DNA of 63,843 nt, filler included, from Collodictyon triciliatum (GCA_043381765.1; 14 parts of 14 records of this genome joined end to end with filler, not necessarily neighbours in it); one strand, 5' to 3'; positions 93-60,430 are shown, counted from the first letter of the whole stretch. Notes: generated from the sequence alone by a model not told the origin. Made by a program: numbers and translations.

Positions 93-766
93 CTCTCATA
101 TTATCTTTCCACTCTTGAAAAAATAAATAAATAATACAGTGGTTACAGATAATCAACGCCCCGTCAAGAGTGATCCCCACCGCACAAATCTCATCAAAAT
201 CACCGCTCACGCCCTACCATAAACCTTTGGACCACATCTCGAAACACTCCTGAAAGAATTCAACCTTTATGTGATTTAATTATTTTTACATAATAATGTA
301 TTCAACTCAGAAGATAGAGCGAAAATCAAACAAACAAACAAACAAACAAACAAACAAACAAACAAACAAACAAACAAACAATTAGCATAAAACCCAACAT
401 AACATTACTACAAAAAATATAAATGGAGTAGCAATTATATCAACAACAGACAATTAAAATAATTGAAAGAATTAAATATAATATTACCTTATTCCAACTG
501 TTTAGAATAATGCAATATCAAAATAAATAATCAAAATAAATAATCAAAATAAATAATCAAAATAATAAAATGTAACCAGAATAAAGAAACCTAGTCATCG
601 AATGTTGGCATGCCATCATCTATCGAGTGCCTTATCAACAAGCTATTTACCCTGATGAATAGATAAACAATAAATATGTACACAAAGTAGGGTGTGTGTG
701 TGGACAAAAACAAAAGAGAAAGAAGAAAAAAAACTTTGGTATTTTGTTACAAACAGTTACGCAATC

Positions 767-51565: not shown

Positions 51566-52019
51566 NNNNNNNNNNNNNNNNNNNNNNNNNNNNNNNNNNN
51601 NNNNNNNNNNNNNNNNNNNNNNNNNNNNNNNNNNNNNNNNNNNNNNNNNNNNNNNNNNNNNNNNNNNNNNNNNNNNNNNNNNNNNNNNNNNNNNNNNNNN
51701 NNNNNNNNNNNNNNNNNNNNNNNNNNNNNNNNNNNNNNNNNNNNNNNNNNNNNNNNNNNNNNNNNNNNNNNNNNNNNNNNNNNNNNNNNNNNNNNNNNNN
51801 NNNNNNNNNNNNNNNNNNNNNNNNNNNNNNNNNNNNNNNNNNNNNNNNNNNNNNNNNNNNNNNNNNNNNNNNNNNNNNNNNNNNAGGCAAGTTGTGTCCT
51901 TTTGCTGCGGTTTCTGATCGAGCGCATCCACATGAACTTTTCTCGCTATTCGACCCCTTTTGACCCAGAAGGAACGCTCCTGAAGAATTGTAACAGAGCA
52001 CTAAACTCTACAGTCCGTT

Positions 52020-52099
<80 letters not shown>

Positions 52100-52314
52100 T
52101 CCTTCTTTCCTTCTTTCTTTCCTTCTTTCTTTCCTTCTTTCCTTCTTTCTTTTTTCCCGATAGTCTTTTTTTTTTCTTCTTCTTCCAAGCTAACGGTCCG
52201 CCAATACAGCCCCCAAGGGAGACAAAGCGCCACCCATAGCGAGAAGCAAGCAAAGCCCAAGAAAGCGAAAAAGGGAGAAACCAGAGCGCGTGGTCGCAAA
52301 TCGGAGCCGCAGAG

Positions 52315-55350: not shown

Positions 55351-56207
55351 TAAATGCTATTATAACGCGCATTTGCGCACAAGATTATCCTGCACCAACA
55401 TCGCTGTCTTTCTGTCCGCAACGGCTGTTTCGCCATGTCCCTTTGATTCTTTTTCTTTTCCTTCTTCATTAACAACCGGCAATTCATGCATCTGCTCTTT
55501 ATTTCATACAAATATACGAGACAAAAGGCAGAAAGATAAAATTATCCACATATGGAATTTTAACAGAGGATAATATACGATACTTAAATAACGATACTAA
55601 TGTCAACTGAACCCATCGCATCATCCTTTCTGATTATTGTCCATACCCGAGCAAAGTGTGGCAGGCCACATGTCCCACATTCATAAATGGATGTATAACG
55701 TCGATAGCACCAATACGGCTCATTTCATTTAATCTCCACAGGTCATATTTGCTTCAGGACGCAGCAACGAATGATTCTGAGAAAAAGAAAACACATACAT
55801 ACACACACTCACTTTTGCGCGGGCATTGCAAACAACACGCAAACACTCGTCCTTGTCATTTGATTTCTCGGGGAATATAAATGGGCCGACCAAAGCAGGC
55901 TATGATGGTTTTTGATGGACAGCCACTCAGGGATTGGGTCGCACCAGAATCAACACACACAATCGCCCACACCCGCATAATGCGCCGTGGAGAAAAAGAG
56001 TGAGAACGAAAAAGAAAGAAAAAAAGAAAGAAAAAAAGAAAGAAAAAAAGAAAGAAAAAAAGAAAGAAAAAAAGAAAGAAAAAAAGAAAGAAAAAAAGAA
56101 AGAAAAANNNNNNNNNNNNNNNNNNNNNNNNNNNNNNNNNNNNNNNNNNNNTTAATTAATTAANNNNNNNNNNNNNNNNNNNNNNNNNNNNNNNNNNNNN
56201 NNNNNNN

Positions 56208-56487
56208 AACACAAGTCAGGATATATTTTGCGTCTTCTGACTCCAGGCCGTCGACATCAATTGTGTCTATTTGAATGTACCCTGGTTTGAATCGCATCAT
56301 GGTTGCTTGTTTGCGTTCTGACTTTCTCGCTTGGAGAGTTTGGTAGTCGGGTTGTTGTTTGAGAAATTCCTCGACAGTCTTTTTTTTTAATTCCAAATTC
56401 TTTTACGAGCGCCCAGAGTCCGGCAACTGAATTGGTGTGCTTGGGTGCATTGTGATACTTGTTCAATATATCCATTTCGTCATCCAT
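56208..56487 (-). mobile_element. N-terminal part of a Polinton/Maverick- or mavirus-type retroviral-like (rve) integrase, frameshifted, cut by contig end
   Basis: Joining two frames across the T9 run (56380-56388) gives MDDEMDILNKYHNAPKHTNSVAGLWALVKEFGIKKKTVEEFLKQQPDYQTLQARK...GYIQIDTIDVDGLESEDAKYILTCV. This fits the c-integrase pattern V..(W/F)L..Q..Y...Q.D..D....KYILT.ID. No introns. Confidence 0.8.
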
Positions 56488-56496
56488 ATATTGAAT

Positions 56497-56590
56497 TAGA
56501 TATAATAATAAGTAAAAAACGCAGAAAACAATTGAGGATGAAATAATCTGATATTTATTTATTCTATATATCTAGAATAAATAAATATCA
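56497..56590 (-). promoter_or_regulatory. TCTA motif in AT-rich context at -13..-10 of the integrase ATG, and perfect 18-bp inverted repeat
   Basis: Minus strand: tattattataTCTAattcaatatATG. Hairpin arms TGATATTTATTTATTCTA (56549-56566) and TAGAATAAATAAATATCA (56573-56590) with a 6-nt loop. Confidence 0.55.
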
Positions 56591-57039
56591 ATCAGAGACA
56601 TTGCAAAGACATTATTCAACAAACTCGCGAACTTTTTTAGCTTGAGATATCGACAATCTTTTCACTCTTTTGGCAGAACTTGTTTTGCGTCTTTTTTTTA
56701 CGCACCGGCTTTCTGATACCATGTAAAGTAATATTGACAAATATGAATAATAGACATCAAATAGACCCACATTCATCTATATATGAAATCCACAATAGGG
56801 AATGCACCTTGGTCATTCCCCGATTCACCTCTATAAATGCATTTTACCTTTCCTTCTTGTCATTTTTATTATTGCACTCTCATCGCACCAGAATCCGCCT
56901 GCAGCAAGGACGCAACACAACAGAAAAACCAAAACAAAAAAACAAAAAAACAAGAAACAAAAAATGGAATGAAAAACCGTAGAAATTGTTGTAATACAAA
57001 ATCCACGCTAAAAACTCGACACAACAGAGAAGGCAGCGG

Positions 57040-57834
57040 ATGGCGCAGTTTATCAAACTCCAAAGCTCTGACATTACACCAGGTCCTCTTGTATTCGGCA
57101 CAGAAGATTACCGTATTATCCAAGCTCGAGATAAAAGAACAGGACAGACGGTCGCTGTCAAAGAATATCAAAAATCACAGCTCCACAAACCTGAATATGT
57201 CGAGCCCATCATGGAAGAAGTCGGTAAGCTTGTCGCTTTGCCTCGACACAGCGGGGTTTTATCCTACCTTGGTGCTTATGTCGAAGAGGGCACTTTAAAT
57301 ATCGTCCGCGAGTTTGGTGAAGGACGTACCCTCGAGGAAATCATTCCCACGCATAACTTCGACCTTGAAAAGATCAAAGAATTAGTTGAAATGATCTGCG
57401 ACGGCGTTTCATTTTTACACTCTCATGGATTGTTTCATTACAACATCAAGCCCGACAATATAATACTGAAGGCTGATGGAAGTGTCGCTCTTTGTGATTT
57501 TGGGATGCTCGAGCTCCGTGATAGTATTCAACGTAGAGGCACATCTAGAAGACTAGACATTGCGGTAGCTCCGCCAGAATTGTTCCGCGATGGCTCTTAT
57601 GTGGGAGAGAAGAGCGATGTTTTCTCAGTCGGGCTTATTTTATGGATGTTTCTCTTCAAAAAGATTCCCAAAGTCCGCTACTTTGACACGAGAAAAATTA
57701 CCGATCCAAAAATGAAAGAGCTGCTGACCAAGACATTTAACCAAACACCTGAGGAGCGCCCGACACTGGACGAGTTTCGTCGCAGTATATTAACTGATTG
57801 CGTATGTGGCTTTTCTTCACAAGTGATCTCCTAA
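57040..57834 (+). CDS. Protein-kinase-fold pseudokinase (HRD replaced by HYN, no Gly-rich loop)
   Basis: VAVK and DFG are intact, but the catalytic loop is LFHYNIKPDN and GxGxxG is absent. Possible phase-1 donor at 57785. Confidence 0.85.
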   Translation: MAQFIKLQSSDITPGPLVFGTEDYRIIQARDKRTGQTVAVKEYQKSQLHKPEYVEPIMEEVGKLVALPRHSGVLSYLGAYVEEGTLNIVREFGEGRTLEEIIPTHNFDLEKIKELVEMICDGVSFLHSHGLFHYNIKPDNIILKADGSVALCDFGMLELRDSIQRRGTSRRLDIAVAPPELFRDGSYVGEKSDVFSVGLILWMFLFKKIPKVRYFDTRKITDPKMKELLTKTFNQTPEERPTLDEFRRSILTDCVCGFSSQVIS

Positions 57835-57919
57835 TGCATATCTGATACTCATGAGATTTATTCAGAATTAAGTATTCGACCGGAAACGTACCTTTCTACC
57901 TATTAATGTACTATACAAT

Positions 57920-58161
57920 ACAAAGACCGACAAAGCTTTTGGGCCGCCCACCTGACCAACTCGCTATCACTGATTTCTTTCCAGTGCTGGCCTCTCCACG
58001 GTAGTGTCTTCTCTTACCCGCGTTTGCTCTCTACTATGCACACCTACCTCGCTCTTTTATGGCATTAACTCACAGCGCTGAATCGAATAAAGGGAAAAAA
58101 CAAACAAAAGAACAAACAAAAGAACAAACAAAAAACAAACATAAACAAAGATCGACAAAGC
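57920..58161 (+). mobile_element. ~208-bp 5'-truncated non-LTR retrotransposon copy with 17-bp TSD
   Basis: ACAAAGACCGACAAAGC (57920-57936) and ACAAAGATCGACAAAGC (58145-58161) flank it. 57946-58003 matches the reverse complement of 38565-38622 at 53/58 by hand alignment. Ends CTGAATCGAATAAAGGGAAAAAA plus a CAAA-rich tail. Confidence 0.9.
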
Positions 58162-58202
58162 CGAATTAGTGCGAAATGCGAAAGGAGCTGGTTAACCTGT
58201 AG

Positions 58203-59392
58203 AAGCTCGCAAAGCTGAAGAAGTCCGCAAAGCTAGAGCAGCAAGTAAGTGAGAACATTGTCCTCTTCCTTTGCAGTCACTGATACTCCTATAAGGCGGC
58301 CTCTGACATCAAACCAAATCAGCCCCTAGCCGCCTGACCCTGGGCAAGTATGCAGACCTGCTAACCACGGACTTTGAGAGGAGGGAAAACTTCCTGGGCA
58401 AGGGCGGCTTCGGGATGGCGTACAAGGTGCAGCTAAAGGAGGGCGTCTTTGCTATCAAGAAGATCCCTGATGCTATGGTCTCATCATCCCCAAACGGTGC
58501 AGACCCCGAGACCGAGGGCAAGTTGATGCTCGAACTACAGCACCCAAACATCCTGAGACTCTATGACTTTGGGTACCACAACAAGGACCTGCTCTTTGTC
58601 ATGGAGTTTGCGGACGGTAGAGACCTGCACACACTCATCGAAAGGTGCAAAGCGCTAGGAAACGATCTGACCCTCAAATACGGGCTGCACATCATCCATG
58701 GACTTGCCTATCTCCACTCTCGCGTGCCGGCCATCCAGCACCGCGACCTGAAGACAGAGAATGTCCTCCTTGTGGACGGCGTCGCCAAGCTGACTGACTT
58801 CGGGCTTGCAAAGAGTGGTGTCTCTGTCAACTCGGTGAGCAAGTTCGGTGGCTCGATGAAATGGTCCCCACCCGAGGTTTTTGACGGGGGCAAGGGTGTG
58901 GGCCTGCCTAGCGATGTCTACTCGTATGGCCTTGTCCTCTGGTCCATGCTAAGCGGCAAGTATCCGTACGAGGGAATGATTGACAGTCAGGTCAGTTTGA
59001 GGGTCCTTCGTGGGGAAAGGCTTCCTCTCCCTGCTACCTGTCCTTCTAACCTCGCAGCTCTTATCCACAAGTGCTGGGAGGGAGACTATGAAAAAAGAAT
59101 AACCGCGGTTCAAGTCAGGACATATATGGACGAGCTCATGCGCAACCCAAACACCGTGATTGAGAAGACATCAAGGGATTCAGTAAAGGGAATGAGCAAC
59201 GCGCAGCTTGTCAAGTACCTGGAGGATGAGCATGTCATTAAAAAGTTTATTGATATCGTAAAGAGCGCCAATGTGACAGGTGATGACTTCCTTGAGCTTG
59301 ATAAAGACAATTTAAAATCCAGACCATTCAAACTCAACGAATTCGACGCCAAAACGATTATCAAGTTGATTGAAGAAGCCAAGCACAAATAG
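58203..59392 (+). CDS. TKL-group protein kinase with C-terminal SAM domain (5' end unresolved)
   Basis: LGKGGFG, AIK, HRDLKTEN, DFG, GSMKWSPPE, SDVYSYG, CW...R. SAM-like tail MSNAQLVKYL...NVTGDDFLELDKDNLK. Intron 58245-58322 (GTAAGT...CTGAC...CAG) links an upstream exon EARKAEEVRKARAA. Confidence 0.9.
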
Positions 59393-59525
59393 GCAACCTC
59401 TGAATCTTCTGCTATCGGTATTTTCTCTCACCTCTCTCTTTCTGTTGCAGAGAAGCCGACAGACAATAAAACATAAACGATTAAAAACATGCGCTTACGA
59501 CTTCATATGCCTTTTTTTTTATACA

Positions 59526-59573
59526 CACGAAAAGTTTTTTCCCTTTATTCGAATCAAAGGTTATAGGCACGAA
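59526..59573 (-). mobile_element. 36-bp micro-copy of non-LTR 3' end with 6-bp TSD
   Basis: CACGAA at 59526-59531 and 59568-59573 flank minus-strand CCTATAACCTTTGATTCGAATAAAGGGAAAAAACTT. Confidence 0.7.
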
Positions 59574-59985
59574 TATAGTTTTTGGAATTTCTTTTGTGAG
59601 ATGTTATTGCACTTGCACGCAGCTGTTTTTGATTTTATTTCAACTGTTTAATCGAGAAAACAAAGCCGAGGAAACCGCCTTCACTCCAGGACAAGAAATG
59701 AGCTGTGAACAAGACAGTGGAAAGCCCCGGATTGTGTGGTTGGAGTTTTTGTGTTTTGGGTGGAAGGAAGGAAAGAAAAAAATAGAAACGAGGGAAAGTG
59801 TTCTCACGTGCAGACTATTCTACCCGAGGTGAATCAGCTCCAACACGGTTTCTTGCTGTATTCGACACTTGTAAAAGAGCGGATAAAGTTGTCGGGTCGA
59901 TGAAAGTACACATGGCAATCTTTTCTCAAATTGATCCCGACGAGTCCTTTCAACCGTCTATCTCAGACAAGATTTACATCCTATT

Positions 59986-60278
59986 TCATTTCACTGGATG
60001 AGTCTTTTGAGGGGACAACGGGTCACTTTCGTTGCGTTTCTTGCTGGGCGACTCAGACAAAAAGCGATGCATCGTTATTTGTCTGGTATTCACGGAACTG
60101 GCGCTTGACCGTCCCCTGGTTTCGGAACTATGCGTAGTTGGCAATGGACTTTGCTTAACTGGATTATGGATACGCGTTTGTGGTTTTAGAAACATACGCT
60201 CCTGCTTGCTCGGACTGTCTTTGGTGAGTGAAATTCCAAGCTTGGATTCGACTTGTGGTGTTTGCTCTTGCTCCTTCG
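59986..60278 (-). CDS. Terminal exon of an unknown gene with a PIP-box-like motif
   Basis: Open ~97-codon exon after an AG at 60279-60280. Contains RQITMHRFL near the C-terminus. Confidence 0.4.
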
Positions 60279-60372
60279 CTTAAACAAGGGGTACTCGTAT
60301 AAATAGTAAGAGCATTGGCTGTATTTGAAAAGTAATAATAACAATAACAATAACAATAACAATAACAATAAC

Positions 60373-60430
<58 letters not shown>

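Follow-up and report, generated by a model that had tools for sequence, protein, structure and literature searches.

An rve-type integrase gene fragment, probably from a Polinton-like virus, in or beside the nuclear DNA of a freshwater protist

Endogenous Polinton-like viruses (PLVs) and virophages fill the genomes of protists, where they may serve as heritable defences against giant viruses. The locus described here, a truncated integrase gene at the very edge of a contig, raises the question of which kind of element the gene came from and whether that element sits in host DNA. An earlier note, made by reading the DNA without database searches, had proposed an endogenous virophage or PLV, possibly dependent on a giant virus. 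In our analysis positions 56208-56487 are probably the start of the rve integrase of a freshwater-protist PLV, inserted in nuclear host DNA or assembled next to it. The element contributes only 280 nt here, and direct support exists for the identity of the fragment, its family, the gene neighbourhood of its relatives and the eukaryotic nature of its flank.

The window, by which we mean the whole stretch of DNA analysed (63.8 kb, positions 1-63843), is a pseudo-molecule in which about 15 unplaced contigs, each roughly 4.2-4.3 kb long, follow one another in descending order of length, linked by N44-TTAATTAATTAA-N44 spacers; whatever appears to extend across a spacer is an artefact. The spacers also yield spurious 56-nt 'palindromes'. 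One such joiner (56108-56207) lies directly to the left of the contig that carries the integrase (56208-60430), and the gene, at the very start of this contig, runs off its edge at 56208. The contig break inside the gene had been pointed out before and is confirmed by the joiner that abuts the gene at this position. Long purine-rich microsatellites, (GAAAGAAAAAAA)n and alike, occupy contig ends at 55990-56107, 51900-52200 and many other places, so that most breaks in this assembly fall at simple repeats, unlike the one in the integrase gene. At the other end of the integrase contig, a stretch of about 620 bp (59654-60276) recurs at 90-95% identity and a contig depth of 20-360 in all four freshwater runs compared, which all part from the window exactly at 60276; it probably represents an element that is repeated or conserved widely, and it has no obvious ORF and belongs to no Rfam family. 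Rfam gave no match on the whole integrase contig either.

The integrase fragment itself (56208-56487, minus strand, about 93 codons), delimited by translations, phmmer and alignment, begins with an ATG at 56485-56487, continues for 36 codons, undergoes a +1 shift and then runs for 57 codons to 56208. When the frame is read through with an X at the break, the peptides QPDYQ, QIDTID and KYILTCV are all present in it, and the fragment comprises the N-terminal helical domain and the first catalytic Asp (in QIDTID). The window keeps only this first D of the catalytic triad, with the remainder of the gene beyond the contig end. Because the sequence stops right after this Asp, Pfam placed the 92-aa fragment alone in no family and returned no rve match. 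The proposal that this is the N-terminus of an rve-type integrase is nonetheless borne out by phmmer: among 1.84 billion representatives, the 92-residue read-through matched only three proteins of 403-433 aa (E 3.9e-24, 2.5e-11 and 1.7e-10), which are rve integrases, each aligned from its own N-terminus.

The two reading frames meet in a run of nine A (T on the plus strand) at 56380-56388, minus strand. The relatives' proteins cross this homopolymer without a break (I-KKK-TVEEF in the alignment), and in 5/5 metagenome or metatranscriptome contigs that cover it (runs X1, X4 and X5) the run is one base shorter and the frame is restored. With the relatives in frame and all of these contigs shorter by one base, the +1 shift either arose in sequencing or assembly or is a true mutation, private to this copy and disabling. 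According to the excerpted text of PMC10120064, such frameshifts in endogenous viral regions often stem from the assembly, and an error would be our choice between the two here.

Full-length relatives place the fragment in its family. Three of them (P0002, P0003 and P0004) score 42.5, 48.6 and 36.3 bits against Pfam rve (PF00665), all above the gathering cut-off of 32.6, and 23/23 relatives retrieved from JGI, ENA and Logan assemblies by a word-index search with P0002 are annotated with PF00665. The full-length relatives are free-standing rve integrases of 396-433 aa, not parts of Pol polyproteins, and occur on contigs of up to 17.2 kb, among them one of 17,215 bp with P0008 and one of 17,173 bp for the P0025 cluster. 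Closest to the window are the loci L001 and L003; identity of the closest integrases amounts to 93-95% at the protein level and about 90% at the DNA level, and L001 matches the window fragment at 95.5% amino acid identity over 89 aa and 90.4% nucleotide identity over 270 nt. Among full-length relatives P0008 (396 aa) is the nearest, with 89-91% identity to both parts of the interrupted reading frame. Integrase-like contigs of 90-99% identity are present in the same and in other freshwater runs. The family was found in metagenome and Logan assemblies only: phage records searched by tblastn with the fragment and P0008 yielded nothing better than chance or transposase-level matches, and IMG/VR contained no match to the fragment, the integrase alignment, the hairpin discussed below or the penton alignment. 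Since it is not found in IMG/VR, the family has no curated viral record as support.

The catalytic residues follow the D,D35E spacing: D81 is invariant and D140 and E175 are nearly so in 18 sequences (P0002 numbering), and in an alignment of 23 sequences all three triad residues D, D and E are invariant, the first Asp in Q-x-D and the second in QSDN. Retroviral integrases carry an HHCC zinc-binding N-terminal domain. This domain is absent from the present family, which has a single invariant His and no conserved Cys pair in either the 18- or the 23-sequence alignment. The earlier claim that the H..H half of the motif had been kept fails, since only the second His (in HTNS) is invariant in 18-23 relatives and the first is Y or F in close relatives. 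We accordingly rejected an HHCC remnant in the N-terminus, given one invariant His and no Cys pair anywhere in the family. AlphaFold models the N-terminal domain as four helices (pLDDT 83-90), and Pfam detected no chromodomain in the family.

An rve core of this sort is common to LTR retrotransposons, Ginger-type DNA transposons and capsid-less Polintons, and the gene could in principle belong to a non-viral mobile element of one of these kinds. Indeed, among PDB entries the family profile matches the integrase cores of retroviruses, foamy virus and Ty3 (E 1e-9 to 5e-5). The best viral fold matches of the integrase model in BFVD, at about 16-19% identity, are the integrase of MELD virus, foamy-virus Pol and, at rank 6, the mavirus rve integrase (E 4.8e-13). 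Since foamy and lentiviral integrases score equally with mavirus, the search fails to single out mavirus. It confirms an integrase fold for the modelled protein, and the model cannot place the family among Polinton, mavirus or retroelement integrases. Against a non-viral element stand the free-standing integrases of the relatives, which are not pieces of a Pol polyprotein, and the genes around them: no reverse transcriptase or other retroelement domain was seen in the 13 related loci, where the integrase has genes for a packaging ATPase, a penton-like protein and a primase-helicase in its vicinity. We consider a non-viral origin extremely improbable.

These 13 loci with related integrases come from one metagenome scan, and every one of them is partial. 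In 10/10 loci that reach past the integrase stop codon, the next gene is convergent and encodes an AT-hook-type protein of 161-199 aa, which usually ends in an RGRPKK-type AT-hook. Then comes a protein of 759-785 aa with DUF5906, a D5-like superfamily 3 helicase, in 3/3 loci scanned (L002, L003 and L009); the L002 and L009 versions, both of those scanned, match phage DNA-primase PHROGs, and that of L003 has a weak PriCT-2 match. Judged by eye, L007 and L010 have the same large ORF as the DUF5906 gene. A Pox_A32-type packaging ATPase of 240 aa was found in both loci scanned for it, at 50.2 bits in L002 and 37.4 bits in L009 (cut-off 22.8). The context genes are homologous between loci. In L005 an HNH_3/NUMOD4 homing-endonuclease-like ORF (132-467, minus strand) lies just upstream of the integrase; homing endonucleases are also drawn in published PLV insertions, according to a figure legend in PMC10120064.

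L009 further encodes a protein of 254 aa followed by one of 807 aa. The former was modelled by AF2 with an 11-sequence alignment (pLDDT 65, pTM 0.50), and its model had 50 BFVD matches at E <= 0.001. The named matches, with Foldseek E values of 1e-11 to 1e-5 and TM scores of only 0.29-0.43, are penton or minor capsid proteins and include those of giant viruses, of the PLV Tetraselmis viridis virus S1 and of MELD virus, as well as the mavirus minor capsid protein (rank 28) and proteins of a lake virophage and of adinto- and adomaviruses. The Atlas lists DUF5901 and V18-19 clusters as leads for it. On this model, which is of middling quality and matches at TM <= 0.43, the 254-aa protein appears penton-like. 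Language-model features, together with weak structural matches, liken the 807-aa protein to the tail fibres of phages, and a phage-like fibre has likewise been described for cryptophyte PLVs in the available part of PMC12220804.

Taken by homology and by models, the relatives' gene set is that of PLVs with an rve integrase and a primase-helicase replication module. PLVs with this pair of genes are common in freshwater and in protist genomes, according to the portions available of PMC12220804, PMC10120064, PMC7805220 and a 2026 preprint by Bellas and Sommaruga, and in published PLV insertions with rve and primase-helicase the assemblies break at the element and contain frameshifts of artefactual origin (PMC10120064 and PMC12220804, in excerpt). 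It is because the relatives' contigs hold a Pox_A32 ATPase, a penton-like protein and a primase-helicase that the edge of an endogenous PLV is our best reading. Of the genes that the earlier note had suggested looking for, the packaging ATPase is present in relatives, and no protein-primed polymerase, protease or major capsid protein was seen in the partial loci. In detail, the scanned proteins of L002, L003, L005, L009 and L012 (partial loci) include no protein-primed polymerase, cysteine protease or virophage capsid family, and no capsid family, such as a double jelly-roll major capsid protein, was detected among the proteins scanned in any locus, all of them partial and that of L009 short of 3.7 kb of its contig. 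Because no major capsid gene appears in these partial loci, the word virus here draws on the ATPase, penton and fibre of distant relatives. The relatives that bear these three genes have integrases only 38-52% identical to P0008, and the closest ones, L001 and L003, show the AT-hook and primase-helicase genes only. In the remaining contigs of the window, searches with 21 context and 54 stored proteins as queries found no other PLV genes. Since the relatives' integrase precedes the AT-hook and helicase genes and then those for ATPase, penton and fibre, the remaining part of the provirus would be expected leftwards of 56208, past the end of the contig.

L001:1-70 is sequencing-adapter-like, and the ends of L003 carry duplicated pieces, namely integrase residues at the 5' end and primase-helicase residues at the 3' end. 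Because adapter and duplications are assembly artefacts, the ends of these two loci are uninformative on viral termini.

The PLV half of the earlier proposal thus stands on the relatives' gene set. Its virophage half, an endogenous virophage in the strict sense (mavirus-like, Maveriviricetes) with a CroV-type late promoter, does not. This reading has points in its favour: the mavirus integrase and minor capsid protein are among the fold matches given above (ranks 6 and 28), and TCTA, a published late motif of mavirus and CroV (PMC8547959, in the part available), lies in A+T-rich context at -13..-10 of the integrase gene and is kept at the same place in L004. However, the scanned proteins of the partial loci include no cysteine protease, protein-primed polymerase or virophage capsid family, replication is by a primase-helicase, foamy and lentiviral integrases score equally with mavirus in the fold search, and, as set out next, TCTA is not enriched. 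We regard a virophage in this sense as very unlikely.

The promoter-like leader of the integrase gene (56488-56525, minus strand) was delimited by comparison with the upstream regions of related loci. The 40 nt upstream of the gene are 82% A+T. TCTA occurs at 56497-56500, so that its position 10-13 nt before the ATG is as the earlier note gave it; as a mavirus-like promoter it does not hold up. The motif was counted in the 40 nt upstream of 36 ORFs from 11 related loci, which are related so that the counts are not fully independent. It is present in 4/36 upstream regions, against 4.19 expected from random 40-mers of the same loci and 7.29 from shuffled upstream regions, and its enrichment before linked ORFs, a prediction of the earlier note, is thus not found. 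Chance alone would put a TCTA within 40 nt upstream in 12-20% of regions of this kind. In the homologous position upstream of the integrase gene, TCTA is present in L004 and replaced in L005 and L008; among the four closest loci with upstream sequence, L004 is the only one to retain it. We therefore rejected TCTA as a promoter core, for want of enrichment and for its replacement in L005 and L008. For a 4-mer such as this in A+T-rich DNA, a promoter should not be called without an enrichment test.

Two other motifs are enriched. TGCGTTT, which the window's leader contains at 56517-56523 (-36..-30), precedes 7/36 ORFs against fewer than 0.5 expected, and its core CGTTT precedes 10/36 against about 1, with 0.1-1.2 expected over the forms of the motif, (T)GCGTTT and CGTTT; in related loci TGCGTTT or CGTTT stands at -29 to -38 before the integrase, AT-hook and primase-helicase genes. 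Transcription of the integrase would start from this conserved TGCGTTT-containing leader, not from TCTA. The octamer AAAATTGA occurs within 80 nt upstream of 5/36 ORFs, against 0.29 expected, with the five ORFs in L003, L004, L005, L008 and L009. Each of the 12 copies that the 13 loci contain is on the other strand from the integrase. In L004 and L008 the motif and the start codon of the integrase overlap, and the motif points towards a small divergent ORF. Within 56208-57040 of the window there is no exact AAAATTGA, only a degenerate version at the start codon, with no divergent ORF. Different genes follow these motifs, and the lineages concerned have integrases of only 38-60% identity. According to the portion available of bioRxiv 10.1101/2022.07.28.501842, AAAATTGA is the early promoter core of Mimivirus and mesomimiviruses and is present in PgVV/Gezel, where it is interpreted as dependence on mimivirid early transcription. 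The possible dependence on a giant virus that had been suggested is accordingly kept alive by AAAATTGA in the relatives, not by TCTA.

Some further motifs and repeats were observed upstream of genes in the related loci. A TGCGTTTGTTTTTAAA-like motif lies at about -30 to -40 of the AT-hook, primase-helicase and integrase genes (L002-L011), and its reverse complement TTAAAAACAA at about -40 of the primase-helicase genes of L009 and L010 and of a 99-aa ORF of L010; the motif may be a bidirectional promoter or a binding site specific to the virus lineage. Directly upstream of the integrase and near the contig ends, L009 (10-33) and L010 (about 70-120) carry repeated TTGCGGAAT-type units and a 10-bp perfect palindrome (GGAATATTCC), which could be terminal or operator sequences of the L009/L010 lineage.

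A perfect 18-bp inverted repeat, said in the earlier note to lie about 60 nt upstream of the gene, is confirmed at 56549-56590: it is A+T-rich, has a 6-nt loop and lies 61 nt upstream of the ATG. Its fold has a z-score of -3.5, with 0/200 shuffles folding as well, and no other short-loop inverted repeat was found in the 63.8-kb window once linker artefacts and three palindromes made of A/T runs are set aside. In Mimivirus and Sputnik, A+T-rich palindromes lie directly after most genes, and the hairpin had been likened to such transcript ends. The likeness does not extend to the relatives. Eight related loci have no counterpart, their best short-loop repeat being 14 nt at 93%, and their convergent genes abut with 0-7 nt between them, which leaves no room for hairpins. 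The ORF that precedes the hairpin in the window (54 codons, 56612-56776, minus strand, ending 21 nt before it) is unsupported as a gene: it has no Pfam family and no match in the related loci, and its exact sequence is absent from a collection of 15 billion proteins. We therefore rejected the idea that such a hairpin generally marks transcript ends in this virus family, as the best repeat in the relatives is of 14 nt at 93%. An imperfect palindrome of 17 nt is found in L009 immediately before the integrase gene.

One low-depth metagenome contig from run X4 shares the sequence to the right of 56526, including the hairpin, and differs to the left. Taken as no more than a lead, it may represent an unoccupied site, a variant, or the opposite end of an element that has terminal repeats. 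Because of this contig the hairpin's membership in the virus is in doubt, and the hairpin may lie outside the viral element.

To the right, and outside the element, lie two protein-kinase genes of the host with spliceosomal introns (57040-59392, plus strand), identified by Pkinase matches: one at 57040-57834 (E 1e-32) and one at 58415-59392 (E 1e-46). Freshwater metatranscriptome contigs align on this flank with few differences or none (0 for several), and RNA contigs skip the introns 57799-57926 and 58244-58323, the latter GT..AG in two runs. Since spliced kinase RNA contigs match it, the flank is expressed nuclear DNA of a freshwater eukaryote. Protein searches with the kinases matched unrelated organisms only, at 29-37% identity. 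Integrase and kinase gene are divergently oriented and about 550 nt apart. The interval 56488-57040 has no credible blastn or tblastx match in the 13 loci and no second copy in the window.

Integration of the element next to the spliced kinase genes is likely. A different account would be that the virus is not integrated and that the contig is a chimera, or mis-join, of a free or episomal PLV with the kinase locus at an A+T-rich stretch. No contig in the four public runs compared covers 56631-56912, and as a result the link between virus and host is carried by the window's own assembly alone. The X4 contig described above joins the sequence right of 56526 to a different left part, and the integrase-like contigs of run X5 are much deeper than the kinase region, although contig depth is not copy number. 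On the other hand, both parts stand together in a single 4.2-kb contig of the assembly itself, L009, L010, L006 and L004 have their integrase gene at the contig end or close to it, a terminal integrase being the expected place of a host junction, and endogenous PLVs with rve integrases are common in protists (PMC10120064 and PMC12220804, in excerpt). A chimera is in our view unlikely, and we prefer a PLV edge in host DNA.

For such an integrated PLV, the course of events can be sketched from knowledge of the family. The integrase would have inserted the viral DNA by the usual DDE strand transfer, and the assembler would have broken the contig at the element because it is repeated or variable; any reactivation by a giant virus would likewise follow from what is known of the family. 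A bolder picture can be drawn, in which this is a provirus of an unclassified freshwater PLV lineage (absent from IMG/VR, with 3 representative clusters among 1.84 billion) that lives as a virophage-like parasite of mimivirids, carries AAAATTGA and a lineage-specific bidirectional TGCGTTTGTTTTTAAA-like motif at its genes, and is kept by the host as an inducible defence, the hairpin being part of its terminus or an integrase-binding site. We offer it tentatively and think it rather improbable that all of these parts hold together.

What the fragment adds is a host-virus link for a PLV integrase lineage that has no named representative and is seen in several freshwater metagenomes and metatranscriptomes. 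It is also an entry point, as its relatives on 17-kb contigs together with leftward extension could give a complete genome, the capsid group, the termini and the host, and the two upstream motifs could reveal which transcription machinery the virus uses.

To place the element among known systems, Mavericks/Polintons have the same rve-type D,D35E integrase and belong to the same realm of capsid-encoding integrating elements. However, their defining protein-primed PolB is absent from the relatives' loci, which have the DUF5906 (S3H) helicase protein instead, and the N-terminal domain here is without HHCC and has no Pfam chromodomain alongside it. Mavirus and the EMALEs of Cafeteria share the rve integrase, integration into a protist nucleus and promoters copied from giant viruses (PMC8547959, in the part available); they differ in that the linked genes here show no TCTA enrichment and include no protein-primed polymerase or protease. 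What the present relatives have in common with giant viruses is the early AAAATTGA, as in PgVV/Gezel, and not the late TCTA. PgVV/Gezel-14T, a small PLV with a virophage lifestyle, also has a phage-fibre-like protein and AAAATTGA before several genes, whereas its AAAATTGA-preceded genes are Yrec and TVpol and not rve and primase-helicase, a comparison by description only, from the accessible part of bioRxiv 10.1101/2022.07.28.501842.

The endogenous PLVs of cryptophytes, chrysophytes and other protists differ from the present case in that no major capsid gene, terminal inverted repeats or target-site duplication are seen here and one element end only is in view. As the available portions of PMC12220804, PMC10120064 and PMC7805220 describe them, they have the same free-standing rve integrase, the same primase-helicase in place of a protein-primed polymerase, and the same Pox_A32-type ATPase, penton and phage-like fibre that we find in the relatives. 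They also show the same adjacency to host genes, the same break of the assembly at the element and frameshifts that were attributed there to errors of assembly. What we describe is thus a real, if very small, part of a PLV that is endogenous or at least adjacent to host DNA, and elements of this kind are well known.
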